Source: Nitrospiraceae bacterium UBA6898 (lineage in GTDB: Bacteria; Nitrospirota; Thermodesulfovibrionia; Thermodesulfovibrionales; UBA6898). From it: DNA of 42,454 nucleotides. The stretch covers positions 1 through 42,454 of the forward strand of contig DKBO01000079.1 in assembly GCA_002448975.1 (NCBI GenBank), read 5' to 3'. This document shows positions 19,380 to 34,503 of the stretch, piece by piece (positions within the stretch are counted from its first letter, which is position 1; every line of letters begins with the position of its first letter). The position numbers and the translations under genes are program-made. The notes beneath the pieces were generated by a model. The model saw only the letters and a program-made list of their open reading frames with translations, had not been told where the DNA came from and did not search any database.

Positions 19380-19400
19380 GTTGCTATTATCTGCAGCTGG

Positions 19401-20165
19401 TCAACGGATTAGCGCGGTTTCGAGTGAAGACAGGTATTCAGCAACGTCTTGCGGACCTCGGCCCATCGTTTCCAAAAAAGCAGTGCCGATAATCACTGCG
19501 TCGAGCCCCGCGATCACGGAAAGGGTTTTAATGTCTTCTGCGCTTCGAATTCCAAACCCTGCAGCAATCTTGGCTGAAGGGCATATCGACTTGGTGGTTT
19601 CGATACATTTCTTCAGCTCGGCATTGCTGAACAACTCTGCTCCCGTCAAGGGTGCTGACATCAAATATACGAGTGGCTTGGGTATGGCGAGCGAGAGTAT
19701 CTCCTGAACCCTCTGCTCGGACATCCACGGGCCGACACACTGCACAAGCTCCATGCCATGGCGGTTGGCTGTTTCAACATAGGGAGCCTCATTCTCCTCC
19801 GACCATTCTAGAATGAGCCCTTCCCAAGCACCCTTGTTATCAATAAGTACCTGCTCGAACGAAGATTTCTCAACCGTCCCCTTGTACAATACGCATAACG
19901 CCGGTGTGGTCGGCCGCCTTAGGGGTATGGCAGCCGTATACCGACAGGCCTCGATGTGGGCACGTTTTATGGTATTGTTTGCATGGTTGGAAAAGCCGTC
20001 GCTTGTGGGAATTGTCGTCTCAATAATAGATACGAAATTGGCCGCATCCAGCTGGGAGAGTATGTTCTCGAATTGAGAAGGATCCGGATAATTCGGCACA
20101 ACATAGATGATCAGTCCCTGTCGGCCTTCCTGGTTAGCCTTTTCTATCGCATTATGAAACTTCAT
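19401..20165 (-). CDS. divergent tryptophan synthase alpha (TrpA)-like TIM-barrel protein
   Basis: 254 aa. LIIYVVPNYPD and IIETTIPTSDG align by eye with TrpA AGDPD and ELGIPFSDP. AAGFGIRSAEDI and DAVIIGTAF match the TrpA phosphate-binding GFGIS and G-S-A loops. The second catalytic Asp region looks altered (SNHANN). Confidence 0.6.
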   Translation of the reverse strand: MKFHNAIEKANQEGRQGLIIYVVPNYPDPSQFENILSQLDAANFVSIIETTIPTSDGFSNHANNTIKRAHIEACRYTAAIPLRRPTTPALCVLYKGTVEKSSFEQVLIDNKGAWEGLILEWSEENEAPYVETANRHGMELVQCVGPWMSEQRVQEILSLAIPKPLVYLMSAPLTGAELFSNAELKKCIETTKSICPSAKIAAGFGIRSAEDIKTLSVIAGLDAVIIGTAFLETMGRGPQDVAEYLSSLETALIR

Positions 20166-21400
20166 GGCTTTTTCTTACCATTATACCCTGTCCATTCCTC
20201 AAATTGTTCGGCTGGGGTGATATTTTCCACGGACCACGATTCGACGAATTCCCTGGCCTTGCTCCACGTTGGAATAGGTTTCGGGAGATACCATGAGTGT
20301 GCAGATGGAACCGGGACGTCCCATTTGGGAGCTGTGCCATTTTTCCTCTGTCGGCCAAGAATCTCCTTGGAATACCGCCCCAGAGCCCACATGAAAGCTG
20401 CCGAGCATATCAACGAGATGGGATCTCCCAACTCAATCTTGACCCGCCCGTCCGTTCCCATGGGCAGCTGGAAGGGTTTCAGAAGACATTCAACAGTATC
20501 CACATAGCGGACGACCGTCAGCGGGTCAGCATATTTTTGGGCTTGTATTCTCGTCTCAAGGCACTGATTGAGAAACCCCGGGAGATGCGGGTTCCTGCTG
20601 CCAAAGAAAAAAACCGTATTGACTGCCGAGAAATGACCCTTTTGGTATAGATCCGCAATCAACGTACCGTATAACCCTACGTCCAGAATGAGCGTCTGGC
20701 CAAGGGCCAAAGTCCTCGTGAGACGTATTTGTCCATTACGGTATTCATGAAACAGCAGCGGCGATTCGCCTCTGTCGCGCAGAGGCCGCGTGTATACGAG
20801 AAAATTCAGCGGGATGGGATTCTTACCCCTCTGCAATGCACGCAGAGCAGGCCAGAAAAGCAGGGCATCCCTCAAGAAAAGCATCATGCTGTCAACCTTT
20901 CCCTTGCAGCCGGCAGCTAAAGCATCCTCCGCAAAGCCATGGAGAACGGGTAGCAGATAAGATGTGCTGTCCAGATAGCGTCGCACAATCTCAACGAGGA
21001 ATCGCCTCGTCGGAAGACATGCAACTCGGTGATCCTGGATTTGCGCAAAGAGCGCGCTCGAAACAACATAGCCTTCTGCATCGTCTTCCCGGGAGAGATT
21101 CCGATAGAGCAGCGAGAGAAGAGCGCCGGGGTCGGCAGACCCTGTATCCAGGCCGATGTAATTGATGCAGGCGTCCACCAATGATGCCAAGGATTCTGCC
21201 TGATCAGTCAGGGCAAGAAACTGTATCAGATCCGGCAGTCCAACCTCAACGTCCCGGATGATCAAAGCAGGGGGAAGCTGGTCTAAATCGACAGATGAAC
21301 CGCGGTAAAGCAACGGGATGCGCTCACCTGACAATTTTTCCATCTCCGGCAGAAAATCGAGCCGGGATATATCATCTAAAGGTGTACCTAAAATACTCAT
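20162..21400 (-). CDS. hypothetical protein, 412 aa, no motif recognised
   Basis: A long ORF with a 4-nt ATGA overlap with the TrpA-like gene. It is the first gene after the sigma-54 promoter candidate. It has no TM segments or signal peptide, and I could not assign a family by eye. Confidence 0.6.
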   Translation of the reverse strand: MSILGTPLDDISRLDFLPEMEKLSGERIPLLYRGSSVDLDQLPPALIIRDVEVGLPDLIQFLALTDQAESLASLVDACINYIGLDTGSADPGALLSLLYRNLSREDDAEGYVVSSALFAQIQDHRVACLPTRRFLVEIVRRYLDSTSYLLPVLHGFAEDALAAGCKGKVDSMMLFLRDALLFWPALRALQRGKNPIPLNFLVYTRPLRDRGESPLLFHEYRNGQIRLTRTLALGQTLILDVGLYGTLIADLYQKGHFSAVNTVFFFGSRNPHLPGFLNQCLETRIQAQKYADPLTVVRYVDTVECLLKPFQLPMGTDGRVKIELGDPISLICSAAFMWALGRYSKEILGRQRKNGTAPKWDVPVPSAHSWYLPKPIPTWSKAREFVESWSVENITPAEQFEEWTGYNGKKKP

Positions 21401-21732: not shown

Positions 21733-22542
21733 CTACATGAATTCAGCCATCGGATCACAGGTCATATCAGCCCGCATTTTCACCACTCGGGCGGGATTAC
21801 CGAGAGCGATCGCGCCATCCGGAATATCACGTGTGACCACGGAACCTGCGCCGACAACCGCTCCCCTGCCAATCCGGACTCCGCTCAGCACTATTGTCCC
21901 AAAGCCGATCCAGGCCTCATCTTCTATAATGATGGCTCCTTTCGATTGCACAGGCTGCTTGCGGATAGGTTTGTCCGGCAGGACACCATGATCATAGGAA
22001 TAGAAAGCACAGTTTGGCGCAATCATTACGCCGCTGCCGATCTCGACGGGGGCAACATATGCATTCACCTGGCACCGGGGATGAATACTGGAATCGTCTC
22101 CGATTTTCAGATAGCCCCCATGACCTGTTTCGAGAATGGTATCTCTGTATATGTAGACCCGTTCGCCTATTTCGATGGGACCTGCATCCTCTCTCTGAAA
22201 GATTACAACGCGTTCGTCCATGAAAATGTTTTTCCCGAGCCGCAGATCTGAATGATAAATCGTTACGCTCGGTGCAATATACCCTCTCGAATTCATATGA
22301 GCGAGATAAGGCCGTGATTTATGCGGAGGAGCAGGCAAGGCCGCAAATCGCGCTGCCATGCGCCCGAAGAAGCCGACTCCAGCAAACCTCATCCAAAAAC
22401 GCATCCAATACTTCGTCAGGACATTAAGACTGCTTGGGTGCCGATAGGTATTAATGATATAGTGTGCCCTTTTCTGTAAACCCATGTAATTTTCCAGAAC
22501 TTGGTCGATAGATGAAAGCGCAAGGGGAAGGTTGATCTGCAC
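21733..22542 (-). CDS. left-handed beta-helix (hexapeptide-repeat) sugar O-acetyltransferase
   Basis: 269 aa. The C-terminal half holds the hexapeptide repeats IGDDSSIHPRCQV, IGSGVMIAPNCAF, IIEDEAWIGFGTIVLSGVRIGRGAVVGAGSVVTRDIP..AIALGNPARV. The N-terminal extension is about 100 aa. Confidence 0.8.
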   Translation of the reverse strand: MQINLPLALSSIDQVLENYMGLQKRAHYIINTYRHPSSLNVLTKYWMRFWMRFAGVGFFGRMAARFAALPAPPHKSRPYLAHMNSRGYIAPSVTIYHSDLRLGKNIFMDERVVIFQREDAGPIEIGERVYIYRDTILETGHGGYLKIGDDSSIHPRCQVNAYVAPVEIGSGVMIAPNCAFYSYDHGVLPDKPIRKQPVQSKGAIIIEDEAWIGFGTIVLSGVRIGRGAVVGAGSVVTRDIPDGAIALGNPARVVKMRADMTCDPMAEFM

Positions 22543-22551
22543 TATAGCAGG

Positions 22552-23442
22552 TCAACAAACGGATCTGCTTTGCGGGTGCCCCATAAAAATACCCCTCAGA
22601 GAGTTTCCTCCCAAAATGACAAGAATTTTCTGGAACGCCACCCCACTGACCATGGCCAGGCCGGCCAATACAAACAGTGCATCCTGAAGATGCTTGCTCG
22701 CCATTTCATGTAAGCCCGTCAACGGGAGAAGCAGAATTAAGAAGATGCCAGGCACCAGATGCCCCAGGCCCAGAACAACTAAAAGAGACAGGGGATTGCG
22801 GAGAATCGCCGTAGCCGCGCGTAAAGCATGGTTCGCCTGAGGGATCCGCACATAAATACCGTATACAAATAAATTCAGAACCAGACATACAATCCCTGTG
22901 ACAACCATTTGGGTCGAAAATGCCAATCCGCTCAGGCCCGACACGATTAGCAGCAGCCCGCAACCTCCAACAATGCTCGAGGTAAAAAAGCTAATTGGTG
23001 CAAGCGGCACATTCCAGGCTGTCACTGCCCTGGCACGATAGACCATGCAACCCTGGCTTATCACATAGACAAGGACAGCCCCGACAGAGAGCACATGCAG
23101 GAGGGGGTGTGGGAATAGCCAGTTCATCGATGCCAACAAGACAAATACTGTTCCCGACAAAACCTCTCGCGACATCCAGGAACTCTTGAGGTTGCCCAAA
23201 ATGTAAACGCCTCGCAGCGGCCTGCCAGCTTCAAAGGTCATGAAAAGGAATCCCAGGACAATAAGGAGAGGAGACAGCAACATGGATATCATGTCCTGGG
23301 GTTCGCTGAAAGCAATCCCTTCCCGCAAAGATATATCGAAAAAGCGCAGCACGTAAAAGCCCGAAGCCATGCCCCCCATAAAAAAATTAAAAACTGCGGG
23401 CCAGCCCCACACCCTGTATTTTACTGGTTGAATATGTTCCAT
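22552..23442 (-). CDS. NrfD/PsrC/DmsC-family integral membrane quinone-interacting subunit
   Basis: 296 aa and polytopic. It has WGWPAVFNFFMGGMASGFYV and EAGRPLRGVYILGNLKSSWMSREVLSG, which are hallmark NrfD-family blocks. Confidence 0.8.
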   Translation of the reverse strand: MEHIQPVKYRVWGWPAVFNFFMGGMASGFYVLRFFDISLREGIAFSEPQDMISMLLSPLLIVLGFLFMTFEAGRPLRGVYILGNLKSSWMSREVLSGTVFVLLASMNWLFPHPLLHVLSVGAVLVYVISQGCMVYRARAVTAWNVPLAPISFFTSSIVGGCGLLLIVSGLSGLAFSTQMVVTGIVCLVLNLFVYGIYVRIPQANHALRAATAILRNPLSLLVVLGLGHLVPGIFLILLLPLTGLHEMASKHLQDALFVLAGLAMVSGVAFQKILVILGGNSLRGIFMGHPQSRSVC

Positions 23443-23463: not shown

Positions 23464-24105
23464 TCAGTCCACAATGTAGTAAACTGAGGGATCAGTTCCT
23501 AATTCCTCCTGGAGTCTGGCTGTTTTTCCCTCGCGCAACAGTTGCGAAACCACACTGTCGGGATCGTCTAAATCGCCAAATCGCATGGCTTTGGCACTGC
23601 AAGAGATCACGCACTGGGGAGAGGCGTCAGCATCCCGACCGGGCCGGCACCCCTTTCTCATGCCATCGGCAATCTTCGGCAGACAGAAATTACATTTGGT
23701 TGCGACACCCACGCGGTCGGGGTTGGTGTCAGACCCACCCAATCCATGAACAATATTCTTCACTTCCAAGTCATATTTGTCGTGAAATATAATACTGCGG
23801 GCTTGATACGGGCAGGCCACAATGCAGTACCCGCACCCTACACAACGCTCATTTCTGATAGCGACTATTCCGTCGGATCTCCGGTGTGAAGCGGCAGTGG
23901 GGCAGACCTCAACACACGGGGCTTTGCCGCAGTGCATACAGCTTATCGGGATAAACGTTCTTATCCTTTCAGGAGTGGGCGATAATCCACAATCAAAAAC
24001 GCGGCGCCAACTATTGACGGGGACCCTGTTTGTCTGCTTGCAGACAATAGTGCAGGCCTTGCATCCGATACACTTTCTCAGGTCAATGACCATTCCCAAC
24101 CGCAA
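23464..24105 (-). CDS. four-cluster 4Fe-4S ferredoxin subunit (PsrB/NrfC/DmsB-type)
   Basis: 213 aa with cysteine groups CIGCKACTIVC, CMHCGKAPCVEVCP, CVGCGYCIVACP and CNFC. There is no twin-arginine leader. Confidence 0.85.
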   Translation of the reverse strand: MRLGMVIDLRKCIGCKACTIVCKQTNRVPVNSWRRVFDCGLSPTPERIRTFIPISCMHCGKAPCVEVCPTAASHRRSDGIVAIRNERCVGCGYCIVACPYQARSIIFHDKYDLEVKNIVHGLGGSDTNPDRVGVATKCNFCLPKIADGMRKGCRPGRDADASPQCVISCSAKAMRFGDLDDPDSVVSQLLREGKTARLQEELGTDPSVYYIVD

Positions 24106-24140: not shown

Positions 24141-25781
24141 TCATCCCATGATGCCCTTAATATGATCGGCAAGCCTAATCGCAAGAGCGACGGCAGTAAG
24201 CACCGGATTCGCATAGCCACCCGTCGGGAATAAGGAGGGCCCCGCTATGTATAGATTTGAAGTGTCGTGGACGCGGCAATTTTCATCAACGACTCCTTTT
24301 TTGGGATCCGTGTGAATCCGTGTCGTACCCATGTGATGCCATCCTCCCACAATTTTCGGGATGTCGTTTTCGTCCCTGAGGTCGATCTGCAGGCTGCCAA
24401 GACCGGAGGAACGAACTTCCTCATCCATTATTTCCTGTGCCCTCATAACGCTGCGTATGTCTAAAGGGCTCAATTTCCAGTCCAATCTGACGCGCCTTCG
24501 ACCCAGGGCATCACATTCATCAGAAAGTGATACACGACTATCGGGGTTCGGAATCTGTTCAGTCATTTGATCAAGCTGGTACACGATGACCTTCTTTTGC
24601 TTATGTAAGAAACGCCCGCATCTGCGCAGTGCATTCTTCCGAACAGCTGTGGCTACTCCGCCGAGATTGGCAGCCACATCCTTCAACTGGCCGGTAAAAT
24701 CATCTGGAAGCCGTCCGTCAACCATTACTGACCGAAGAAGCCTGCGTGCCTTGGCCCCTTCAGACTGGTCGGCCTGAAGGGGCAGGTTATCCGGCCGCAC
24801 ACGGGGAAGAATGGAAACGCAATAGTTTGCCAATCTCTCATTTCGCAGCGTATTTTCAGATAGAGTCAATTTCGCCATTATGGGAACGGACTTTGTCTTA
24901 TGGATTCTGTACAGGGCAGTCTCATTATAAGTGTCAGGCCTGTCCGGAAGGTAAAAGCCTGAGTAGAAGTGAAGATGCTCCATAAAAAATCTGCCAACCA
25001 GATCATTTTGATTGCCGATTCCGTCACGCTGCTTCTTGTTCGAAAGTAATAGGAGTCGGGGGGTATCGATTCCTCCCAGCGCCAAAATGTAAAGTTTTGC
25101 TGAAACCCGGAATCTATTGCCCTCCAGGCAGGCCGCATGAATATGCGATACGGTCTGAGCAGCCGTATCCGTCTCCATTTCTACTGCATTGGCGAAAACG
25201 TAAGCACTGATATTCTCTGCCCTTCCAATTTCTTCTCTATAATCATTGAAAAAAGGGTCGCGTGGACCGAACTGGAATATCGCGGTCTTCATCCTTTCCG
25301 AAACAAAGGGAAGTTTGGGGGTTATCTCAGGGTCTTCCCAATCTTCGACCTCGTATGTATAGGGACCTATGCGGCAGACAGAGTGAGCGCGTTCATAAAA
25401 GGGATCAAGATAGGACTTGTCAAAAGGCCATCCGCTGTGCGGGAGCCAGTCACGCTCCTCGAAATCGATCGCGTCCAGGGGCCTCAGACGCACCCCGATA
25501 CGGTTATCCCCCAGTTCAACACTCCACCGATGACTGGACCCACCGAAAGCACAGCCCCGTGCGGTATCAAGCTCATAGTAAGGGAGGCCGACATTTTCTC
25601 CCCAGTAAAGCGACTGTGTTGCCCTGTCAGGTTCAAGTCCGCCGCTTTCCAGAAGACAGACCTTGAATTCTTTTCCTATGAACTCCCTGGCCACAGTAAT
25701 GCCTGCTATACCGGCACCTACGATGCAGACATCAGCCCGGATTGTCTTGTTTGACGGCAATGTACGCGCGTCGATAATCAT
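24141..25781 (-). CDS. GMC-family FAD-dependent oxidoreductase
   Basis: 546 aa. It has an N-terminal DVCIVGAGIAGITVA Rossmann motif and a C-terminal GGWHHMGTTRIHTDPKKGVVDENCRVHDTSNLYIAGPSLFPTGGYANPVLT (GMC_oxred_C-type active-site block). There is no signal peptide. Confidence 0.85.
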   Translation of the reverse strand: MIIDARTLPSNKTIRADVCIVGAGIAGITVAREFIGKEFKVCLLESGGLEPDRATQSLYWGENVGLPYYELDTARGCAFGGSSHRWSVELGDNRIGVRLRPLDAIDFEERDWLPHSGWPFDKSYLDPFYERAHSVCRIGPYTYEVEDWEDPEITPKLPFVSERMKTAIFQFGPRDPFFNDYREEIGRAENISAYVFANAVEMETDTAAQTVSHIHAACLEGNRFRVSAKLYILALGGIDTPRLLLLSNKKQRDGIGNQNDLVGRFFMEHLHFYSGFYLPDRPDTYNETALYRIHKTKSVPIMAKLTLSENTLRNERLANYCVSILPRVRPDNLPLQADQSEGAKARRLLRSVMVDGRLPDDFTGQLKDVAANLGGVATAVRKNALRRCGRFLHKQKKVIVYQLDQMTEQIPNPDSRVSLSDECDALGRRRVRLDWKLSPLDIRSVMRAQEIMDEEVRSSGLGSLQIDLRDENDIPKIVGGWHHMGTTRIHTDPKKGVVDENCRVHDTSNLYIAGPSLFPTGGYANPVLTAVALAIRLADHIKGIMG

Positions 25782-25875: not shown

Positions 25876-27177
25876 TCACTGCGCGCCGGTACGTTTTTCA
25901 GCCGTAAGAGACCCAGTTCCGCCGGGCTGCAACAGACGCGCATCGCGTGAGGAAAAGGACCGTGCAGAGACATTTGCAATAACACCTTTTATTTTGCCTC
26001 GCCAGTAATTGATCATCTCATGTCTTCGGAAAATGGTATTTTTTCTCTCGATAATTTTTGCCAGATCGCCAAGGCCTTTATCTCTCAAATAAGGGAGCAA
26101 TTCCAGATAATAATAGGGGTCCAATTCTTTCTGGAGACTCATTGTCTTATGCAGGTCGCGTGCCTGGAAGACTTCTGTCCTGTCGAGAACGCCTACTATC
26201 TCGAGCGCCAGCATCGTGCGGAGACATTTCTCACATCTGCCGCAATTCAGCAGGCCCGGTCTATAGCTTTTATAATTGTTACAGACACGCAAATTCTGAA
26301 GTGCCGCTTCCGAGTCGGCGACTATTCTCGTCTTGTCCAGCCTTGACAGGGTGATACCGTCATGCCGAATTCTTAAATTGAGACTGCTGTAGTTCAGATC
26401 AAGGACGGGATGGGTGCCGTAAGGGCGGGGATGTTTTCCGTTTGTGGCTAACGCTTCTTCAGGAAGAGAGTCGGTTGCCGGGATGGATACAACCGTGAGC
26501 CGGCGGGAAAGTGCATGCGCGACAGCAGACAGCGCCGCAGACTGAAATTCATATGTCCAGAATTTGAATTTATTGCCCGCATCTTCCTGCCGGTAATTCA
26601 GGTAGACATTCGTATAGACAGGAATAAGCGTTATGTCCAGTGCATCGGCAGCCCTCTTCATCGGATCAAGAACATATTTGAAGATCTCAGGATCATCCTG
26701 TTCAAGCCCATAGATCAGCAGACCATCTTTAACTGATCCGGGGTGCTCCAATGGATAATCACGACGGTTTGTGAGCAGGGTTGCAAAGGAGTCTATTCCG
26801 CCGGAAAAAAACGACCCCGCACGCGCAGGAGGATGCGGGTGAGAACCGTTTGAGCGCAACGCCGCCTCAATCCGGACCGGCCGGCGTCCAGGTTCATAAA
26901 ACCAATGGCACAGCCACGTCATGGCGGTGAGCAGGCCATTCCTCAGTTCAGGGCAGATTTCACCATCAATGAAAACCCTTTCTTCTCCGAAGTGCAGGGC
27001 AGGGATAGCGCACCCGATTAAGAATGCATGGGGGTCGCAGGACAGGCTCTCTGAAAATTGCTCATCCACTTCAAAGAAAAGATCATAGGCCGGACGTTCA
27101 CAGTCCTCCCAGGTCACCGTCGCCGCGGCCCTCGCTTTGTTGCCGTTTTTTTCTGACCTCAGGTTTTCTATTTTCAT
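25876..27177 (-). CDS. PP-loop (SGGxDS) ATP-pyrophosphatase-like protein with a QueC-like Cys motif and an unknown N-terminal domain
   Basis: 433 aa. GSFFSGGIDSFATLL is the PP-loop. The C-terminal LNCGRCEKCLRTMLAL resembles the QueC-type CxxCxxC zinc site. The first ~120 aa have no motif I recognise. Confidence 0.55.
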   Translation of the reverse strand: MKIENLRSEKNGNKARAAATVTWEDCERPAYDLFFEVDEQFSESLSCDPHAFLIGCAIPALHFGEERVFIDGEICPELRNGLLTAMTWLCHWFYEPGRRPVRIEAALRSNGSHPHPPARAGSFFSGGIDSFATLLTNRRDYPLEHPGSVKDGLLIYGLEQDDPEIFKYVLDPMKRAADALDITLIPVYTNVYLNYRQEDAGNKFKFWTYEFQSAALSAVAHALSRRLTVVSIPATDSLPEEALATNGKHPRPYGTHPVLDLNYSSLNLRIRHDGITLSRLDKTRIVADSEAALQNLRVCNNYKSYRPGLLNCGRCEKCLRTMLALEIVGVLDRTEVFQARDLHKTMSLQKELDPYYYLELLPYLRDKGLGDLAKIIERKNTIFRRHEMINYWRGKIKGVIANVSARSFSSRDARLLQPGGTGSLTAEKRTGAQ

Positions 27178-27181
27178 GCAA

Positions 27182-28396
27182 TCATCCCCTCAGCGAATTT
27201 CCATGGGCTATTTGAAATTGAATGATGTTATCTACAACTTTGCTGTATTCCTCGGTAAATCTTTCTCTCGTGTGGTTTGTCCTCGCAAATTCCCAGGCGC
27301 TCCTGGCCATCGCCTTGAGTTCTTGCCCTGAGAGATCAGAGATCTCTTTCACTGAATTCTTTATCTCTTCGATGGAGCATTTCTCTAAAATCAAGCCGAA
27401 GCTCCCGTCAACGGCAATGCCACATTCATAACTGATAATAGGAATAAGGCCTGCACGCGAGCAATTTATTACAGCTCCTGACCCGCCTTCTGAACACGAC
27501 GGGCTTATTACCCCGACACAGGTATTTGCAACGTCGAGGAATTTTCGGCCGGCAACGTCAACAAACCCCAGATAATGAATATTGGGAGTTTGAAAAAGCT
27601 CTTTATGATAGGCGTCTGTAAAATCCTTTTCTTCTTCCAGCCTGCCGCAGACATAGAGATGGTAATTCGGCATTTCAGCAAAGGCCTCCAAAAGCAGGTC
27701 CAATCCCTTATGAACCGCTCCAAATCCACTGAAATACAAATAATTTGTCCGGGTGATGTCATAATCTTTATCCTCAGGGAAAGGACACATAATCTGTGAC
27801 GGAATGGGAAGGTAAAACACCGGTCTTTGCGCGATACCGTAAGTGCCGGGAGTAAACTGATTTGCGGAAGTAAGGACTATGTCAGCCACCCCGATGCCTT
27901 TTGTGGGTTGCAGTTGCCTTTTGGGTTTCAAGATCAGCTTTCTTCGCTGCTGCAGTTCTACGTGACGTTTATAATTTGCATAATTATGAAACAGCCAATG
28001 AGCCCAAACTATGAGCAAAACCTTTACGCATTCCTGATTAAGCAATGGCCCTATTCTCTCAAGATTTGAATGCACATCAATGAAAATATTATAGTCTTTT
28101 TCCGGCATGAAACGATCATTCTGGTAGTCGATTACATCTACATTATACCCGCGGTCCAGGAAAGCTTGAGCCATTTCCAAACACTGCCACGCAGAAATAT
28201 GCTTTTCCTTGACCGTCGGATCCAAAAAGGGATCCGCCCTGTAGGATAAAAGGACTTGGCCTGCACACGACTCCTTTGTTCTTAAAGATATGCTTTGCCA
28301 TTTTTCCCTTTCCGCTCTGGAAATTCTTCTGACCTCAATACCGGACTTCTGCAGCGCCTTTTTGATTAATCTCTTCACCACGTTATACCCTTTCAC
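27182..28396 (-). CDS. putative GT-B (GT1/GT4-like) glycosyltransferase
   Basis: 404 aa with YLYFSGFGAVHKGLDLLLEAFAEMPNYHLYVCG and ISPSCSEGGSGAVINCSRAGLIPIIS in the C-terminal donor-domain pattern. Confidence 0.6.
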   Translation of the reverse strand: MKGYNVVKRLIKKALQKSGIEVRRISRAEREKWQSISLRTKESCAGQVLLSYRADPFLDPTVKEKHISAWQCLEMAQAFLDRGYNVDVIDYQNDRFMPEKDYNIFIDVHSNLERIGPLLNQECVKVLLIVWAHWLFHNYANYKRHVELQQRRKLILKPKRQLQPTKGIGVADIVLTSANQFTPGTYGIAQRPVFYLPIPSQIMCPFPEDKDYDITRTNYLYFSGFGAVHKGLDLLLEAFAEMPNYHLYVCGRLEEEKDFTDAYHKELFQTPNIHYLGFVDVAGRKFLDVANTCVGVISPSCSEGGSGAVINCSRAGLIPIISYECGIAVDGSFGLILEKCSIEEIKNSVKEISDLSGQELKAMARSAWEFARTNHTRERFTEEYSKVVDNIIQFQIAHGNSLRG

Positions 28397-28398
28397 CG

Positions 28399-29715
28399 TT
28401 AGCTGTTTTTAACGGACTCCTCGGCGCTGTATGTTGTCGTCCACTTCAGAAGCGGCCTTACTGCCCCACCAATATATTTAGTCCAATCCCCACGCGCGGA
28501 ATCTGGATCCATATCATCGACAACGCGGAACGAGATAGCGTTGTCTTCGATAAAACGGGCGACGAATGGTTGCGGTGTCATCATGGCCGCATGGACAAAT
28601 ATTTCCCCATCAGATAGCAAATTGGCTGGAATCAGCGCGGCACTTATATAACGACCCGCCGGACGAGGACGCTGCCTCCACTCAGGATCGATATCTAAGG
28701 TTGTAAATATCTTCATACCTTCATCATTGTAAAGATTAAAATTGGGCACCAGCCAATTCCCCGGTTGAAGCACCTCATACTCCATTTCCAGACAGAACGA
28801 CTGGTTCGTAAGGACGGTATCAGCAACACTACCTTCTTCTGTTCGCATACGGACAGCGCAGAGGCGTACCGTTTGGTCACCTGGTGCATTGCCAAGTTCG
28901 TTCCATTCCCGGTGGGCTCTTTTTTGCGTTCCTTCGCTTAAATAACTGCTTACAACCGTAATCGGAGGACCGTCCATTACTATTTTCCCGTCTTTCAGTA
29001 AAATAATTCGTTCACATAATCGGCCTATGGAAAGTATGTTATGCGACACGAAGAGGACTGTTCTACCACTTCTCCCAATGTCCTGCATTTTATTGAGACA
29101 TTTCTTCTGAAAGCTCGCATCTCCCACCGCGAGCACCTCATCAACTATCAATATCTCCGGCTCTAAATGTGCCGCGACTGCGAAAGCTAATCTTAAATAC
29201 ATACCACTGGAATAATGCTTTACAGGGGTATCAATGAATTTTTCCACCTCGGCAAATGCCACAATCTCATCAAACTTTCTGCTGATTTCGCCTCTTGTCA
29301 TGCCAAGAATTGCACCGTTAAGGTATATATTTTCCCTTCCAGTCAACTCCTGATGAAATCCGGTACCCACTTCCAATAATGAACCCACCCGGCCCCGTAT
29401 TTCTGCAGATCCTTTTGTTGGCTCAGTAATTCGTGAAAGAATTTTTAATAAGGTGCTTTTGCCTGCTCCATTTCGTCCAATAATGCCTACTACCTCGCCC
29501 TGTTTGACATTAAAGGATACATCTTCAAGTGCCCATATGGATTGGTCTAATTCAGCAGCGCCTGCAGCATGTCCGTGCAATAATTTGCCTGCTTTTCTGA
29601 ATGGTGCAACAAAAGAATCAGCAATAGTATCACGCAGGGTTTTATAGCTTTCCTGTCTTCGACCTATATGATATTGCTTACTTAAATTTTCCACACGGAT
29701 TGCGATATTATTCAT
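28399..29715 (-). CDS. wzt: O-antigen/polysaccharide ABC exporter ATP-binding protein with a C-terminal extension
   Basis: 438 aa with Walker A GRNGAGKST, the LLEVGTGFHQELTGRENIYLNG block typical of Wzt/TagH, signature YSSGM, and Walker B ILIVDE. A C-terminal domain of about 190 aa sits where the Wzt carbohydrate-binding domain would be. Confidence 0.9.
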   Translation of the reverse strand: MNNIAIRVENLSKQYHIGRRQESYKTLRDTIADSFVAPFRKAGKLLHGHAAGAAELDQSIWALEDVSFNVKQGEVVGIIGRNGAGKSTLLKILSRITEPTKGSAEIRGRVGSLLEVGTGFHQELTGRENIYLNGAILGMTRGEISRKFDEIVAFAEVEKFIDTPVKHYSSGMYLRLAFAVAAHLEPEILIVDEVLAVGDASFQKKCLNKMQDIGRSGRTVLFVSHNILSIGRLCERIILLKDGKIVMDGPPITVVSSYLSEGTQKRAHREWNELGNAPGDQTVRLCAVRMRTEEGSVADTVLTNQSFCLEMEYEVLQPGNWLVPNFNLYNDEGMKIFTTLDIDPEWRQRPRPAGRYISAALIPANLLSDGEIFVHAAMMTPQPFVARFIEDNAISFRVVDDMDPDSARGDWTKYIGGAVRPLLKWTTTYSAEESVKNS

Positions 29716-29881
29716 TGGTCTTGGTTTATCCTCTCGGTTCTTTGTTTCACGTTTACGGAGAAAGGTACTTATTAAATGTCCCTGCCTCGGACGGCCGGCC
29801 GTCTCCGTTCACCACCCTTGTTTTGAACATCAGATCGAAGTCTATTCCCGGTCGGCTTCCTGTTAAGAAAGTAATTGCACG

Positions 29882-30175
29882 TTACGTCATAGCAGTCCCA
29901 GCACAATTATCTGGGTCATTAACGAGCCCCGTCAATGCTGCAACCTGACCCCAGGTCGATCTGGTTCTCATGCAGCGGCAAAGGCTCTGCCATGCACCAC
30001 TCCGTATACCGTTGTTGTCAAAACCTTTCACCGCAGCCCCGGGCTCGCAGACTGTCTCCTGGCCCTCCACGCACTTCAGACTCCAGTTCGTATAGGGAAT
30101 GGCGCTTGTCGCTGCAGCAGCCGCTACTGAACCGCTCACCGTCAAAAGAAAACTCAGCAGGCGAAGTACTTGCAA
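29882..30175 (-). CDS. hypothetical small secreted Cys-containing protein
   Basis: 97-aa ORF with a TTG start. It has a signal-peptide-like LRLLSFLLTVSGSVAAAAATSA and five Cys in the mature part. The RBS is weak, and an ATG-started ORF in another frame (30018-30203) overlaps its 5' end, so a frameshift or misassigned start is possible. Confidence 0.35.
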   Translation of the reverse strand: MQVLRLLSFLLTVSGSVAAAAATSAIPYTNWSLKCVEGQETVCEPGAAVKGFDNNGIRSGAWQSLCRCMRTRSTWGQVAALTGLVNDPDNCAGTAMT

Positions 30176-30277
30176 CCGAGGTAAACCTATTCATTATCAT
30201 CATTGTGCAGCTGTGCCATGTATTTTAGTTTTATTTACCGGGTACAATAAAAACACTATAGCACGCCGCCTCCGGCG

Positions 30278-31132
30278 CTAGACCACATCTGCGAAGGTCT
30301 TTTCCAGCCGTCTGAAATAGAACAATCCACTTACGAGTAATGCCAGCGCAACACCCGAAGACATCCATATCGTAGAACCGGGGGCGGTATCCGTCGCGAG
30401 GAGCGCCCACCGAAACCCCTCGACCACGCCAACCATGGGGTTAATCGCATAGATCGTTCTCCAGGGTTCGCTCAGGAGACTGCTCGGGTAGGCAATAGGC
30501 GTTGCAAAGAACCATAGTTGTGTTATGAAGGGAATGATATGCTGCACGTCTCTGAATTGTACGTTCATTGCGGAAAGCCACAAGGAAACTCCCAACGCCG
30601 TCACTAATGCGAGCAGCAGGAAGAAAGGCAAAAACATAACATTGATCGTCGGTACAATACCAAAATATAGCGTCATGCCAATAAGGGTAATAAGGGCCAG
30701 GACGAAGTCCAATATCCCGGAGAGAACATTTGCTATCGGGATAGCAAGACGGGGAAAATAGACTTTTTTGATCAGGTTTGAACTGCTGACAAGACTATTA
30801 GATGCCTTGCTCAATCCGTTCGCGAAAAAAGTCCAGGGCACAAGGGCAGCAAAACTGAAGATGGGATAGGGCACTCCGTCAGAGGGTATTTTTGCCAGAC
30901 GGCCAAAGAAGAGGCTGAAGACAACCATGGTCATGAAGGGTTGAATAATGGCCCAGGCAGCCCCCAGGACCGTCTGTTTGTAACGGATTTTGATATCTCG
31001 CCAGACGAGAAAATAAAGGAGTTCCTTGTATTCCCACAATTCTCTCAGTTTAAGGGAAACCCACCCACGGGAAGGTTCGATGCGGATTATCGGAATGTCG
31101 ATTTGAGCAGCGTTAACAGTATCTTTTTCCAT
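30278..31132 (-). CDS. wzm: O-antigen/polysaccharide ABC exporter permease (ABC-2 type)
   Basis: WRDIKIRYKQTVLGAAWAIIQPFMTMVVFSLFFG plus six hydrophobic segments. I chose the ATG at 31132 (MEKDTV...) because GAAAGG lies 5-6 nt upstream. The longer ORF to 31207 runs into a pseudogene fragment. Confidence 0.85.
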   Translation of the reverse strand: MEKDTVNAAQIDIPIIRIEPSRGWVSLKLRELWEYKELLYFLVWRDIKIRYKQTVLGAAWAIIQPFMTMVVFSLFFGRLAKIPSDGVPYPIFSFAALVPWTFFANGLSKASNSLVSSSNLIKKVYFPRLAIPIANVLSGILDFVLALITLIGMTLYFGIVPTINVMFLPFFLLLALVTALGVSLWLSAMNVQFRDVQHIIPFITQLWFFATPIAYPSSLLSEPWRTIYAINPMVGVVEGFRWALLATDTAPGSTIWMSSGVALALLVSGLFYFRRLEKTFADVV

Positions 31133-31204
31133 AGACCCTTTCTTTCTGTTGTGATGTCCTTTCGGATGTATGAGAATCCCGGCTTTGCTCTGCCCCAAGC
31201 CGGT

Positions 31205-31375
31205 CACACAGTCTGTTCTCAGGCAACTCCACGCGGCAAGTAAGCACCCGATCCTTTGCAGTGTTCCGTTTCAGATGGCGCCCCTCGGCCAAGCCCCTTG
31301 GAGGCAGCATTCGGAGTAAACTGTCTCGGAGTTCTGACACTGACCATAGATCATCACGACGCGCTTTCATGATCC
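31205..31375 (-). pseudogene. frameshifted C-terminal fragment of a SAF-type dehydrogenase, paralogous to 33202-33390
   Basis: The fragment translates as MIYGQCQNSETV, then a frameshift, then LLRMLPPRGLAEGRHLKRNTAKDRVLTCRVELPENRLCDRLGAEQ. The intact gene reads YMTYGQCENSDAVKGERLLPMGLAEGCRLKKDISRDHVLTYDDVDLPDNRLCDRLRAEQ. The DNA is alignable, for example gtcacacag(t/c)ctgtt and gagttctg(a/c)cactgaccatag(a/g)tcat. Confidence 0.75.
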
Positions 31376-31444: not shown

Positions 31445-32170
31445 TTATCTTGCACTGCAGGAATAAACTGCATCGAGTATTTCTTCCTGATTGCGGACGA
31501 AGATCCTCATGGCTGTCTCCTCGCCGAAGAGAGAGACTACTTCCCTGAATGCTTCCGAGAGTTGCGGTGGCCGCATCCGCACATCATGGCCATCAGATGC
31601 AACAAAATCAACAAGCCCCATTCTGAGCAATGCGTAACTGACATTTCGGATCTCTCTTCCGAACCCTCCCGTGATACTCTGGGCCGTTATCTGCGACATT
31701 GCACCGCATTCCCTCAATCTCCTCAGCAGTGCCGGACGCCTCGCGAGGAGAAGATGTCGTTCGGGATGCGTGATTATCGGGATGACCTTGTGCTGCCGAA
31801 GTTCAAGGATAAGGTCCTCCAATCGGGGCGGGAGTGCGAGGGAGGGGAATTCAAGAAGGAGATAGCCAGAGCCGTTCAGGGTCGGGATGTCTTCATTTTC
31901 TATCCTCTCCAGAAGATTATGACATATTCTTACGTCAGCGCCATACAGGAGCTGCAGACCGTTGGGAAGACTGCCTTTCAGTTTTTCACATGTCTCCTTG
32001 ATCACGGCCGTCCCATTCCGGTAGAGACCATCCAGAATATGCGGTGTTGCAAACATGTGGGTTATACCATCATCGATCGCCATCTTTGCCATGGCAACTG
32101 AATCCTGAACAGCCCCGGGGCCATCGTCTATCCCAGGCAGGATATGGCAGTGAATATCAATAAAGCTCAA
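31445..32170 (-). CDS. cpsB: CpsB/CapC-type PHP-domain protein-tyrosine phosphatase
   Basis: 241 aa with a TTG start overlapping the upstream TGA. It has IDIHCHILPGIDDGP, ATPH and ITHPERH metal-binding motifs. Confidence 0.85.
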   Translation of the reverse strand: MSFIDIHCHILPGIDDGPGAVQDSVAMAKMAIDDGITHMFATPHILDGLYRNGTAVIKETCEKLKGSLPNGLQLLYGADVRICHNLLERIENEDIPTLNGSGYLLLEFPSLALPPRLEDLILELRQHKVIPIITHPERHLLLARRPALLRRLRECGAMSQITAQSITGGFGREIRNVSYALLRMGLVDFVASDGHDVRMRPPQLSEAFREVVSLFGEETAMRIFVRNQEEILDAVYSCSAR

Positions 32171-32451
32171 AAGTGCCTCCCTGTTTGATATGAGCTGAGA
32201 TGCTTTGCGTCATAATCTGCTCCGGCTGTTCCAGGAGAGCACCTTTTTCGTCCCAGCCCTCTCTGATTTGCGTTGTTTACCGTAATCCTATCTCCGTTAT
32301 CCCGAAATTCCGCGTTCGTGACAGCGCAGCCGATTTTTCCCATAAACCGGAACCTATCGGTCACGATCAAGCTTTCAACCCCTGGACAGCTTTCTTCCTT
32401 CATGTCCCTCTGAACGCTTCTTTTCTGTTTCCCCTTATCCTCGAAGATCAT
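32167..32451 (-). CDS. hypothetical 94-aa protein
   Basis: Its start overlaps the upstream stop in ATGA, and its stop overlaps the CpsB TTG start in TTGA. No motif recognised. Confidence 0.4.
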   Translation of the reverse strand: MIFEDKGKQKRSVQRDMKEESCPGVESLIVTDRFRFMGKIGCAVTNAEFRDNGDRITVNNANQRGLGRKRCSPGTAGADYDAKHLSSYQTGRHF

Positions 32452-33227
32452 TGTGCAACAAAGACGGCATTCCTGTTTTCGAGGAATAATACGAAAAGGA
32501 TGAGAATACAGATCAGAATCACGAGCGGCAGAATTATCTTTGAAATCAGCTTTCTCGGTCCGGCCGGCATGACATAATGCACCCGCATCTGTGAAGCGTG
32601 TCTGAGCGGAGCTTTCTTTTTCATGCCCCCCGGCGGTTGAACTGAGACGGGTCTCTTCCGCATGAACTTTCTGTCATATTCCATTCTCTTTCCAGTATCT
32701 TTCAGAACACTATAAACCTCGTTGATTTTGCTCGTACAGCTGACCCAGTTGCCCCCATCACTACGGTGCCTGTCAGGGTGGTAGAGCATCATGAGGCTCT
32801 TCCAGCGATCATGGATCTGGTCAGCCGTTACATTATGGGGCAGCCCCAGGGTGAAATAGTAATCATTCTCGGGATTGAAATATACCCTGTCGAGAATCTT
32901 GTTCAGGTTATCAATCACATAACTCCGATCTATACTGCTCTGAGCCAGGAAACTCTTTGCCCCCGGCGCATCACCCAAGAGATCGATAAAGGCATCGAAA
33001 TTCCTGACAACCTTTATGCTGAATCGCTCCCAGGAAATACCACCCCTAACTTCCCCAATAAATTCAAGGGCATCCTGGTAGTTCACTTGCTTTTTCCCAT
33101 TGTCATGCCGGGATTTCATTCCTTCGTCTGGCCTGTCTTTGCAGATTCGGTCACAATAGACTGTCGGTGAGGCACCCTGTATGTTTCCCCTGAAGAAGAA
33201 CTTATCTCCGGCCAAAAAACAGTTCAT
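32448..33227 (-). CDS. J-domain (DnaJ-like) protein with a C-terminal transmembrane anchor
   Basis: The J-domain is DYYFTLGLPHNVTADQIHDRWKSLMMLYHPDRH...INEVYSVLKDTGKRMEYD, with the HPD tripeptide. The C-terminal hydrophobic helix is ISKIILPLVILICILILFVLFL. The start is uncertain: ATG at 33227 or 33119. The 33296 start would overlap the upstream gene by 95 nt. Confidence 0.7.
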   Translation of the reverse strand: MNCFLAGDKFFFRGNIQGASPTVYCDRICKDRPDEGMKSRHDNGKKQVNYQDALEFIGEVRGGISWERFSIKVVRNFDAFIDLLGDAPGAKSFLAQSSIDRSYVIDNLNKILDRVYFNPENDYYFTLGLPHNVTADQIHDRWKSLMMLYHPDRHRSDGGNWVSCTSKINEVYSVLKDTGKRMEYDRKFMRKRPVSVQPPGGMKKKAPLRHASQMRVHYVMPAGPRKLISKIILPLVILICILILFVLFLENRNAVFVAQ

Positions 33228-34503
33228 TCTGTTCCGCTCGCAGCCTGTCACACAGCCTGTTGTCCGGCAGATCCACATCATCATAGGTAAGCACATGATC
33301 CCGGGAAATATCTTTCTTTAGGCGGCATCCTTCAGCAAGCCCCATGGGGAGCAGTCTCTCGCCCTTAACCGCATCCGAGTTCTCGCACTGACCATAGGTC
33401 ATATAGTAGCCCATGCCATCAAGCACCTGCCCGGCCTTTAGATCTATCTTCGCGGTAGCCACAACATCGACTAACGGTTTGCCAAGCGGTGCGATGGCTG
33501 CGTCGTGGAAGAGCGCAGCCCTGGCAATAGTATTGTGTACCTCAAAGTGGCAGAGATGATAGGGGGTATAGAAACAATAAAGTGGGCCTTCGCCCAGCTT
33601 GTAGAGGTTCAGGTAGTGTTTCTGCATCGGGTGATCATGCGTACCAAGAACAAATACCCCCGGCCCGGGCTCAGCGCCGACTACATAGTCAACGACCCCG
33701 GGGCCTGACAAAAGATCCTCGAGAGGATACCAGGAAACCGCTTCCTTGATGGCAGTTCCTGCCGGCACCGTCGGTCCGTGCATGCCCCGCTTCGCCACCC
33801 TCATTCCCGTAGCATTCGCCACGATAGCCTGTTCAAAGGAGATCTTGGTTCCGTCGGCAAAAGACGTGACCATGTGCGCTTTCTGTCCCCACTTTCGTGC
33901 AAACCCCTCCTGGGTTGTCGGGTTGCGATAGGGGTCCTGAAGACCCTTTATGTTTCCGCACAAAACAGGGCGAACGCCGATCCCTTTGACAAAACGGTAC
34001 AGGTTCATGATTACGCCGGGTTGATCTCCGTCTGCATTCGTCAGAACAACCCCCGCCTTATCAGCATACACCTTCAATACAGGGCCTATTGTTCCGTCAA
34101 GTTCGGCATTCATCATAACGACATGCTTTCCGTGCTCGATCGCTTTCAGCACTACTTCGGCTCCAAACTCAATAGCACCCGTCACTTCGATAACAGCGTC
34201 TATACCGTCGGCTTTGCAGAGAGCCAATGCATCTTCAGTTACCGCGTAATCACCTTTGCTTATCGCCTCCTCCATCTGGGCTACCGTTTCAACGGTTTGT
34301 GTTCTTTCGATGCCCGCCTCGGCATATGCCCGGCGAGCACCTTCGAGATGCCGGTTGGCGATAGCTACCAATTTCATCCCCGGCACATAATTGCATATCT
34401 GTAACGCTATCCCCCTCCCCATAAATCCGGCTCCGATCATGCCGACACGGACAGGGGTCCCGGCTGCATGAAGCTTCTGCAATGCTGTATCAAGAATGAT
34501 CAT
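33202..34503 (-). CDS. NAD(P)-dependent oxidoreductase with a C-terminal SAF-like domain (predicted homoserine-dehydrogenase-like family)
   Basis: 433 aa. It has an N-terminal VRVGMIGAGFMGRGIA Rossmann motif and a C-terminal KAGQVLDGMGYYMTYGQ block. Confidence 0.65.
   Translation of the reverse strand: MIILDTALQKLHAAGTPVRVGMIGAGFMGRGIALQICNYVPGMKLVAIANRHLEGARRAYAEAGIERTQTVETVAQMEEAISKGDYAVTEDALALCKADGIDAVIEVTGAIEFGAEVVLKAIEHGKHVVMMNAELDGTIGPVLKVYADKAGVVLTNADGDQPGVIMNLYRFVKGIGVRPVLCGNIKGLQDPYRNPTTQEGFARKWGQKAHMVTSFADGTKISFEQAIVANATGMRVAKRGMHGPTVPAGTAIKEAVSWYPLEDLLSGPGVVDYVVGAEPGPGVFVLGTHDHPMQKHYLNLYKLGEGPLYCFYTPYHLCHFEVHNTIARAALFHDAAIAPLGKPLVDVVATAKIDLKAGQVLDGMGYYMTYGQCENSDAVKGERLLPMGLAEGCRLKKDISRDHVLTYDDVDLPDNRLCDRLRAEQNELFFGRR

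Follow-up and report, generated by a model that had tools for sequence, protein, structure and literature searches.

A QueC-like PP-loop protein family lacking annotation, encoded beside a GMC dehydrogenase module in a Nitrospirota polysaccharide cluster, is a candidate for amide-type glycan decoration

The window analysed here is positions 1 to 42,454 of contig DKBO01000079.1 from Nitrospiraceae bacterium UBA6898 (GenBank assembly GCA_002448975.1), a stretch of 42,454 nucleotides (nt). It is a single long minus-strand polysaccharide cluster with genes for Wzm, Wzt, many glycosyltransferases, a Wzy_C-like protein, sugar-nucleotide enzymes and a sigma-54 activator. Within it, an open reading frame (ORF) of 433 codons plus stop occupies positions 25876-27177 of the minus strand, with its ATG at 27175-27177 and its stop codon at 25876-25878. 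By its core, the encoded protein belongs to a clade of the PP-loop superfamily that is new, only distantly QueC-like and equipped with a substrate pocket of its own. The two motifs that identify it are FFSGGIDSF (residues 123-131, nt 26785-26811) and CGRCEKCLRT (residues 312-321, nt 26215-26244). Residue numbers follow the true numbering including Met1; the alignments A1 and A2 and the full-length model were made without Met1. The ORF, both motifs, the 4-nt gap to the upstream glycosyltransferase gene and the 94-nt gap to the downstream GMC gene, all given in a preliminary description of this DNA, are borne out by the ORF listing and its translation. The gene and the parts of its product are as follows.

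25876..27177, minus strand: whole ORF, QueC-like PP-loop protein of an unannotated family (translation and homologue searches)
26842..27177, minus strand: N-terminal domain, residues 1-112 (AlphaFold2, Foldseek and conservation)
26143..26841, minus strand: QueC-like PP-loop (adenine-nucleotide alpha-hydrolase) core, residues ~113-345 (hhalign and Foldseek)
26788..26805, minus strand: PP-loop S125-G-G-I-D-S130, predicted ATP pyrophosphate-binding loop (strand before and helix after it in the model)
26224..26283, minus strand: four invariant cysteines, C299-x12-C312-G-R-C315-E-K-C318, putative zinc site (aligns with the QueC zinc motif)
25879..26142, minus strand: C-terminal helical region, residues 346-433, with a basic tail at its end (model and charge count)

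The family is large. A word-indexed search returned at least 648 full-length homologues, all of them named "hypothetical protein" where the source names them, and an exhaustive search returned 5,447 cluster representatives at 50% identity with E<=1e-3, 408 of them at E<=1e-30. At least 505 loci were confirmed in a scan of species-representative genomes. The members are found in Nitrospirota, Desulfobacterota, Chloroflexota, Cyanobacteria, Verrucomicrobiota, Planctomycetota and Bacteroidota. Pfam gave the window protein no match even at E<=10, NCBIfam and PADLOC gave none either, and sequence searches of the PDB returned noise only; profile searches of these collections likewise yielded no significant match. 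More than 5,000 clusters at 50% identity in at least seven phyla, yet without Pfam, NCBIfam or literature annotation, amount to a large annotation gap. DUF6395 (PF19932) was considered as the family and rejected. Weak matches to it were seen in 19 of 42 members (best E 0.0057), not above the gathering score, and the one match with coordinates shown spans only the short cysteine motif, about 20 model positions, at 10.7 bits against a cutoff of 25 bits. No paper on DUF6395 was found in the literature.

Conservation was assessed over 105 diverse representatives that are 32-64% identical to the window protein. A60, E65, R67, G127, D129, C299, N311, C312, C315 and C318 are invariant in 105 of 105. 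W23, E24, S125, G126, S130, N137, H145, G157, N190, R279, K282 and K317, among others, are conserved in at least 90%, with values of 98-99% for W23-E24 and 99% for K317. The strict form SGGxDS is present in 88 members and the looser form [ST]GGxD[ST] in 94. With G127 and D129 invariant and S125, G126 and S130 each at 91% or more, the PP-loop on which the preliminary description had built its proposal is kept among the orthologues, and the homologue numbers together with the motif conservation put it far beyond chance. The four cysteines all occur in every one of the 105 members; the spacing after the first is x12 in the window protein and ranges from x8 to x22 across the family, the canonical x8 being found in 11. 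Judged from these alignments, the PP-loop and the cysteine cluster are both hallmarks of the family, and the N-terminal region is conserved as strongly as the core. The one further SGG.DS string in the six-frame translation of the window is an SGGIDS at 25056-25073 of the plus strand, in a non-coding frame antisense to the GMC gene and just past stop codons. This second occurrence is a chance match.

The full-length AlphaFold2 model, run on the 42-sequence alignment A1, has a mean predicted local distance difference test score (pLDDT) of 90 and a predicted template modelling score (pTM) of 0.87. SGGIDS lies in a strand, loop and helix arrangement in the model, as in the PP-loop ATP pyrophosphatase superfamily. 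A Foldseek search of viral structures gave a phage 7-cyano-7-deazaguanine synthase (QueC) as the sole significant match (E 3.5e-5, probability 1.00, template modelling (TM) score 0.53), with ThiI and TilS ranking after it. No match at E<=1e-3 was obtained from the PDB. The structurally sensible PDB matches were all PP-loop enzymes: human asparagine synthetase, which had the lowest E among them (0.02-0.04), the QueC-like YcfA (probability 0.92, TM 0.46), TilS and NcsA.

Profile comparison places the core near QueC. The QueC profile used here combines E. coli QueC with nine viral QueCs of 31-46% identity to the E. coli protein. In local mode, hhalign aligned the family with this profile at a probability of 47-60% (P about 1-2e-4), and the global score was 38-41, whereas 30 column-shuffled controls did not exceed 7.3 and the reversed profile gave 12.9. 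Residues ~115-356 align collinearly with QueC residues 1-231, which puts PP-loop on PP-loop and C299, C312, C315 and C318 on the zinc cysteines of QueC, and the maximum-accuracy core alignment spans 180-206 columns. With the single E. coli QueC sequence, the PP-loop alone was aligned. As a calibration, QatC, whose membership of the QueC family is accepted, reached 93% (P 3e-7) against the same profile; because the family reaches 47-60% (P about 1e-4), it is farther from QueC than QatC is. Matches of family members to the Pfam QueC model (PF06508) were all sub-threshold (E 0.02-0.18), those in four of ten distant members lying at the zinc-motif end of the model, and the window protein did not match this model even at E<=10. 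The cysteine arrangement of this putative metal site resembles the zinc site of QueC more than the sites of LarE and TtuA in an alignment comparison (PMC13329287). The QueC substrate motifs YxQxHxxE, VPxRN and YPDC are each present in 0 of 105 members, and no queD, queE, folE or deazaguanine DNA-modification genes were seen among the 30 largest window ORFs (Pfam) or in annotated neighbour clusters. The conserved motifs, the phage QueC match and the collinear alignment over the whole QueC domain uphold the earlier assignment of a PP-loop protein with a QueC-type four-cysteine site, and the structure and profile searches place it in no characterised family such as a tRNA modifier. Placement in the QueC-like branch of the PP-loop enzymes hands the family a testable chemistry.

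Modelled alone, the N-terminal domain (residues 1-112) has a pLDDT of 96.2 and the order beta-beta-beta-alpha-beta-alpha-beta. Foldseek gave it no PDB match at E<=1e-3, and its weak matches (RNase HI, RuvC, hexokinase, EndoV and uS11; TM at most 0.34) reflect an RNase-H-like topology only. The N-terminal region of about 120 residues singled out earlier is thus real, strongly conserved and unlike any solved structure. Because E65-x-R67 is invariant in both subfamilies of the family, this domain probably contributes to the active site. The C-terminal region contains a long helix (369-414) in the model. In the 42 members of A1, the median net charge is +8 over the final 45 residues but -5 over the body of the protein, and such a basic tail would fit binding to a membrane surface or to an anionic polymer. 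After the cysteine motif come 107 residues in the clade found in glycan clusters and 70 in the clade linked to ATP-grasp, which makes the tail of the former longer by about 37 residues. The protein has no export signals and is predicted to be soluble and cytoplasmic.

The genes around the PP-loop gene, all on the minus strand, are listed in order of transcription.

30278..31207, minus strand: Wzm ABC-2 permease
28399..29715, minus strand: Wzt ABC-transporter ATPase, upstream anchor of the module
27182..28396, minus strand: GT1/GT4 glycosyltransferase, separated by the 4-nt gap from the PP-loop gene; a variable slot in other loci
24141..25781, minus strand: GMC flavoprotein dehydrogenase, partner in the orthologous clade, without signal or Tat (twin-arginine translocation) peptide
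23464..24105, minus strand: 4Fe-4S dicluster protein (DsrO/NrfC-like), without Tat signal
22552..23442, minus strand: NrfD/DmsC-like membrane anchor with at least six transmembrane segments
21733..22542, minus strand: hexapeptide-repeat acetyltransferase, last gene of the conserved block

The genes from the GMC dehydrogenase through the 4Fe-4S protein and the NrfD/DmsC-like anchor to the acetyltransferase are separated by gaps of 35, 21 and 9 nt. A scan for promoters and terminators gave no signal beyond shuffle expectation. The match of the window Wzt to the carbohydrate-binding domain Wzt_C is below threshold (29.8 bits against a cutoff of 30.4 bits).

The GMC protein starts at its FAD-binding motif and the iron-sulfur (FeS) protein at its first cysteine cluster. 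Because neither has a Tat or signal peptide, the GMC-FeS-NrfD oxidoreductase is predicted to face the cytoplasm. As read from the sequences, it is on the same side of the membrane as the ATP-dependent enzyme and as the undecaprenyl-diphosphate-linked glycan before export by Wzm/Wzt. Among solved structures, the GMC protein comes closest to catalytic subunits of sugar dehydrogenases coupled to the respiratory chain, namely FAD-glucose dehydrogenase of Burkholderia and fructose dehydrogenase of Gluconobacter (E about 1e-25 to 1e-24); pyranose 2-oxidases come next (about 1e-11), and 5-hydroxymethylfurfural (HMF) oxidase is one of the weaker matches. The 3Fe-4S cysteine motif of the FAD-glucose and fructose dehydrogenases is absent from the window GMC protein, which fits a separate FeS subunit. 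The segment 22552-25781 thus looks like a cytoplasm-facing, quinone-linked sugar dehydrogenase in a glycan cluster. For glycan biosynthesis it is unusual that a GMC flavoprotein should face the cytoplasm and be connected to the quinone pool by an NrfC/NrfD-type pair, and no paper on the combination of GMC, NrfD and polysaccharide was found.

Gene context follows phylogeny. The comparison covered 79 loci, whose ORFs were searched with every window protein and grouped by de novo clustering, and further loci reached by exact protein look-up. A close clade (at least 44% identity to the window protein, ~400-430 residues) is distinguished from a distant clade (35-42%, ~375 residues, mostly Desulfobacterota). 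Close-clade copies sit in Wzm/Wzt polysaccharide clusters, after wzm-wzt and before the GMC dehydrogenase. A GMC gene lies within 3 kb on the same strand in 10 of 16 close-clade copies and also in loci L099, L101 and L102, so that the synteny with the oxidoreductase module expected from the window is found elsewhere. Adjacency of the PP-loop and GMC genes occurs in Nitrospirota, Desulfobacterota, Chloroflexota, Verrucomicrobiota and one bin labelled Bacteroidota. FeS and NrfD genes usually come after GMC (7-8 loci) and appear to be fused in L025; the hexapeptide acetyltransferase follows in six loci and is replaced or joined by a carbamoyltransferase in some. The arrangement in Ca. Nitrospira salsa (L099) is Wzt, PP-loop protein, GMC and carbamoyltransferase, without FeS or NrfD. 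In the distant clade a GMC neighbour is almost absent, being seen in 2 of 70 copies.

Two loci bear on how firmly the pair is linked. The whole window block is kept in L101, whose orthologue is 83% identical, including genes for a ~415-residue protein, TrpA-like and phosphoribosylanthranilate isomerase (PRAI)-like proteins and a giant LamG/GDSL protein. The GMC protein of L101 is only 53% identical, and GMC, FeS and NrfD range from 38 to 59%. The PP-loop protein of L002, a bin labelled Cytophagaceae, is 50% identical, against 72% for its GMC protein and 62-77% for the neighbours. These mosaic identities suggest cassette exchange, and the closeness of the L002 neighbours to the Nitrospirota-like window may stem from a mis-binned contig. 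Because the adjacency outlasts cassette exchange in L101 and L002, a functional link between the PP-loop and GMC enzymes is indicated.

The window has a single copy of the family. Tandem paralogues, two or three copies that are 38-66% identical to the window protein, stand right after wzm-wzt in L001, L003, L005, L007, L014, L025, L101 and L102. The order in L102, where the orthologue is 63% identical, is Wzm, Wzt, ATPgrasp_ST, three tandem family copies, an enolase-superfamily protein, His_Phos_1, GMC, FeS, NrfD and the hexapeptide acetyltransferase. The copy beside GMC in L101 and L102 (or beside the enolase-like, His_Phos_1 and GMC genes) is the one nearest to the window protein. Several members are fusions: P0140, P0153 and P0220 join the family domain to a C-terminal sulfotransferase, a C-terminal FemAB-type GNAT (Acetyltransf_6) and an N-terminal polysaccharide pyruvyl transferase, and P0168 (701 residues) has an extra region without Pfam match. 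Two further recurrences were noted: a PGA_cap protein (CapA-like phosphoesterase) is often encoded between wzt and the PP-loop gene or genes (L005, L006, L009, L026 and L101), and genes for a DRL-type oxidoreductase (PF21135) and for an RmlC-like epimerase are repeatedly met upstream of wzm, both being present in the window (31445-32170 and 33202-34503).

In the distant clade, a GshB-type ATP-grasp ligase is encoded directly upstream of 43 of 70 copies and itself follows a ~647-residue protein with a C-terminal GNAT domain. This triad, completed by the ~375-residue family member, occurs in about 43-48 Desulfobacterota loci and could, by analogy, be a pathway for amidated peptides like that of N-acetylglutaminylglutamine amide (NAGGN). 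The triad loci (L020-L079, for example L040 2747-3757 and L024 6540-8564) also carry nearby genes for an adenylate cyclase, a 1,073-residue TLC-like/HEAT/cNMP-binding protein and an FGE-sulfatase-family protein. Partners concerned with carboxylates or amide bonds recur across the contexts of the whole family, namely ATP-grasp ligases, ATPgrasp_ST, pyruvyl transferase, enolase-superfamily and PGA_cap genes. Such partners lend circumstantial support to amide chemistry.

From the placement and the gene contexts described above we infer that the protein uses ATP, binds zinc, forms amides and has a glycan as its substrate, and also at which point it acts with respect to the GMC enzyme. The function that we propose, and hold with even confidence, is that of an ATP-dependent adenylating, amide-forming tailoring enzyme that works with the GMC module on an exported glycan. 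The protein would be a soluble cytoplasmic, metal-binding (probably zinc-binding) PP-loop ATP pyrophosphatase. By analogy with the QueC branch, ATP would adenylate a carboxylate, or a carbonyl oxygen, of the substrate with release of pyrophosphate. A nitrogen nucleophile would then displace AMP to form an amide, and this nucleophile would be ammonia or an amine, because neither a glutaminase domain nor a glutaminase neighbour was found. The substrate would most likely belong to the glycan that is assembled on the cytoplasmic side and leaves through Wzm/Wzt, either as one of its sugars or as a substituent. The adjacent GMC dehydrogenase would be the partner of the enzyme, delivering electrons by way of FeS and NrfD to the quinone pool, and the terminal acyl- or carbamoyl-transferase would take part in the tailoring as well. 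The polysaccharide cluster, the fusions to decorating enzymes and the tandem paralogues after wzm-wzt probably support a role in glycan synthesis. To our knowledge, many amide-type decorations of bacterial polysaccharides have no enzyme assigned to them. A family with tandem paralogues and with sulfo-, pyruvyl- and acyl-transferase fusions is a candidate for this task.

A bolder extension of this proposal is that the family comprises ATP-dependent ligases that write an amide, or even a nitrile, onto glycans at the polymer level, with the novel N-terminal domain binding the substrate. The window protein and GMC would then build a cap at the non-reducing end that stops chain growth and is read by the carbohydrate-binding domain of Wzt, and the tandem paralogues would form a variable, serotype-like cassette. 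We regard this extension as improbable.

Several points weigh against amide-forming tailoring of the glycan. PP-loop enzymes also carry out thiolation and amidine formation. The local-mode similarity to QueC is weak (47-60%) and appears to be carried largely by the two motifs; because the substrate-binding motifs of QueC are absent, the substrate is not readable from homology. The four cysteines could hold an Fe-S cluster instead of zinc. A nitrogen-donor enzyme or glutaminase was not found in any module. The nearest characterised relatives of the GMC protein act at C1, at C2/C3 or at C5 and make lactones or keto-sugars, not C6 uronates, so that GMC is a doubtful source of the carboxylate. As GMC neighbours are scarce in the distant clade, the linkage characterises a single clade and does not extend to the family as a whole.

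The preliminary description had proposed a more specific route, a sub-case of amide-forming tailoring, in which GMC-FeS-NrfD oxidises a C6 alcohol of a sugar to a uronic acid that the PP-loop enzyme adenylates and amidates to a uronamide. Its family assignment and, at the level of the close clade, its GMC synteny have stood, and the conserved pairing of the two genes and the predicted cytoplasmic location of all components are in its favour, as is the carboxylate-to-amide chemistry of QueC-type enzymes (PMC13329287). However, because the nearest relatives of the GMC protein oxidise ring positions, the step from sugar carboxylate to uronamide is weakened; these best solved relatives (E 1e-25 to 1e-11) act at C1, C2/C3 or C5. 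Family members without a GMC neighbour would need another source of carboxylate. Some GMC enzymes, such as HMF oxidase and choline oxidase, oxidise successively to acids, which speaks for the uronamide route, and uronic acids are normally made at the level of nucleotide sugars by NAD-dependent dehydrogenases, which speaks against it. On balance we think the uronamide route rather unlikely.

A second alternative keeps the glycan and changes the bond. An amidine- or guanidine-forming amidotransferase, like NASAT/WbpG or argininosuccinate synthetase, would adenylate the carbonyl of an N-acetyl or carbamoyl group and swap its oxygen for NH. A hexapeptide acetyltransferase, if it is N- and not O-specific, or a carbamoyltransferase in the conserved block could supply such a group. 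WbpG, WbuX and LpNASAT perform this chemistry, and NASAT enzymes have a zinc tetracysteine site and a PP-loop at about residue 122 (PMC10607449). However, the NASAT model TIGR03573 was not matched, the NASAT motifs CxxCXn[GN]xCxxC and SGGxDSxY occur in 0 and 3 of 105 members, respectively, and the best structural and profile matches are QueC-like and do not include NASAT. We consider amidine formation doubtful.

A third alternative moves the reaction away from the polymer: the enzyme would act on a small-molecule or peptide-like substituent, for instance by amidating or ligating an acid derived from glycerate, pyruvate or an amino acid, which is attached to the glycan later. The GNAT, ATP-grasp and family-member triad of the Desulfobacterota loci mirrors NAGGN synthesis, in which a GNAT plus ATP-grasp enzyme (Ngg) is followed by the amidotransferase AsnO (PMC8070244), and L102 and L001 hold enolase-superfamily, His_Phos_1 and ATPgrasp_ST genes among the paralogues. 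This argument is one of analogy, however; the window gene has no adjoining ATP-grasp or GNAT gene, and the fusions are to enzymes that decorate polymers. A small-molecule substrate is judged to be a low-probability case for the window enzyme.

A sulfur transferase, in which the four cysteines would hold an Fe-S cluster and the adenylated substrate would be thiolated as in LarE, TtuA/NcsA and YcfA, is very unlikely. In its favour, the weak structural matches include YcfA (of the 6-thioguanine pathway), NcsA and ThiI, a CxxCxxC motif is able to bind Fe-S, a ferredoxin motif of sulfite reductase was weakly matched by the profile, and an FeS protein is encoded nearby. Against this, the cysteines align with the four-cysteine zinc site of QueC, the Fe-S PP-loop enzymes use three cysteines located elsewhere (PMC13329287), and the module has no gene for a sulfur carrier or a cysteine desulfurase.

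A nucleobase- or tRNA-modifying enzyme (QueC proper or TilS-like) that just happens to be encoded in the cluster, or else a scaffold for chain length or termination without catalytic activity, is scarcely credible: the QueC-like fold, a basic tail that could bind nucleic acid or membrane, and a position right after wzt that recalls terminator genes such as wbdD would suit one or the other, but the QueC substrate motifs and the queD/queE context are missing as described above, no Pfam QueC, TilS or ThiI match is above threshold, the synteny and the fusions are all glycan-related, and the conserved PP-loop argues for catalysis.

Other features of the window lie outside this argument. Directly after the acetyltransferase gene, at 18672-21400 on the minus strand (L101 10351-13095), are genes for a 412-residue protein and for two divergent proteins, one TrpA-like and the other PRAI (TrpF)-like. 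The 412-residue protein has no Pfam or NCBIfam match, and the TrpA-like and PRAI-like pair falls short of the NCBIfam cutoffs. In the closest relative, L101, the three proteins are 78-84% conserved; the trio is absent from the other 79 loci. Such tryptophan-pathway-like TIM barrels are odd in a polysaccharide operon. The 412-residue ORF (20162-21400) was considered as a hidden paralogue of the PP-loop family and rejected on comparison. Farther downstream, at 14384-18025 on the minus strand, is the gene for a 1,213-residue protein with LamG/concanavalin-like, GDSL lipase/acylhydrolase, He_PIG Ig-like and InlB-type B-repeat regions, which is kept downstream in L101. The cluster also encodes a CpsB/CapC PHP phosphatase and a DnaJ-domain protein (32448-33296). 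Between wzm and wzt, the 562 nt at 29716-30277 have no ORF of 100 or more codons on the coding strand; wzm and wzt abut in L002.

Compared with known systems, the family is a new unannotated clade of a known kind of enzyme, not a new kind of system. Asparagine-synthetase types (AsnB; WbpS/WbtH, which make uronamides; AsnO of NAGGN synthesis) share with it a PP-loop domain that adenylates and amidates a carboxylate, and AsnO follows a GNAT/ATP-grasp enzyme, as does the distant clade of the family (PMC8070244). However, asparagine synthetase lacks the four-cysteine site, and the TM scores against it are 0.17-0.25. The N-terminal Cys2 glutaminase is present in 0 of 105 members, residue 2 being K, R or I, and the Asn_synthase model PF00733 was not matched. 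NASAT, WbpG, WbuX and PseA (LpNASAT, 8WEX) are likewise PP-loop enzymes of O-antigen and capsule clusters that decorate glycans with nitrogen, but their cysteine motif, CxxC...[GN]xCxxC, is elsewhere in the sequence and their chemistry converts an amide to an amidine. Together with the null results for TIGR03573 and the NASAT motifs, these comparisons agree with the view taken earlier that the protein fits neither the WbpG/WbuX nor the Asn-synthetase amidotransferases.

QatC of the anti-phage system QatABCD and Cap9 of type IV CBASS, both repurposed ligases of the QueC family, resemble the present family in a QueC-like core with remodelled substrate residues and a variant cysteine motif, and QatC also has an N-terminal extension of about 150 residues with conserved residues. 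Cap9 demonstrates that a QueC scaffold is able to ligate a carboxylate to a macromolecular amine (PMC13279940, PMC13329287). A closer relation to QatC was tried and rejected: a PDB profile search touched QatC collinearly at both motifs (E 1.4), and hhalign against three plasmid QatC sequences gave a non-significant 4.5%. For the N-terminal domain against the QatC extension it gave 0.2%, no relation at that sensitivity. The QatC motif C(x)19CGxCxxRR is found in 0 of 105 members, no qatA, qatB, qatD or CD-NTase neighbours were seen among the scanned window ORFs, and the PADLOC QatC and QueC models gave one marginal QueC match in 105 members and none for the window protein.

QueC itself is the nearest reference. 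It is defined by SGGxDS and C(x)8CxxCxxC together with the substrate motifs YxQxHxxE, VPxRN and YPDC (PMC13329287). The family shares SGGxDS near the start of the domain, a C-terminal C...CGxCxxC, collinearity over a domain of about 230 residues and the best structural match. It differs from QueC in staying below the Pfam threshold, in the spacing after the first cysteine (x12, with x8-x22 across the family, against x8), in the lack of the motifs that bind 7-carboxy-7-deazaguanine, in its additional 112-residue N-terminal domain and C-terminal region of about 90 residues, and in its location in polysaccharide clusters instead of que operons. In QueC and Cap9, a carboxylate is first adenylated and then joined to ammonia or a protein amine as an amide (PMC13329287, PMC13279940), and by analogy an adenylation that converts ATP to AMP and pyrophosphate is expected for the window family. 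A 2026 survey of PF06508 distinguishes clusters for tRNA and DNA modification, QatC, Cap9 (anti-phage protein conjugation), LarE, the WbpG type and GMP synthase (PMC13329287). The present clade is not on that list and would carry a repurposed QueC scaffold into glycan, and possibly osmolyte or peptide, metabolism.

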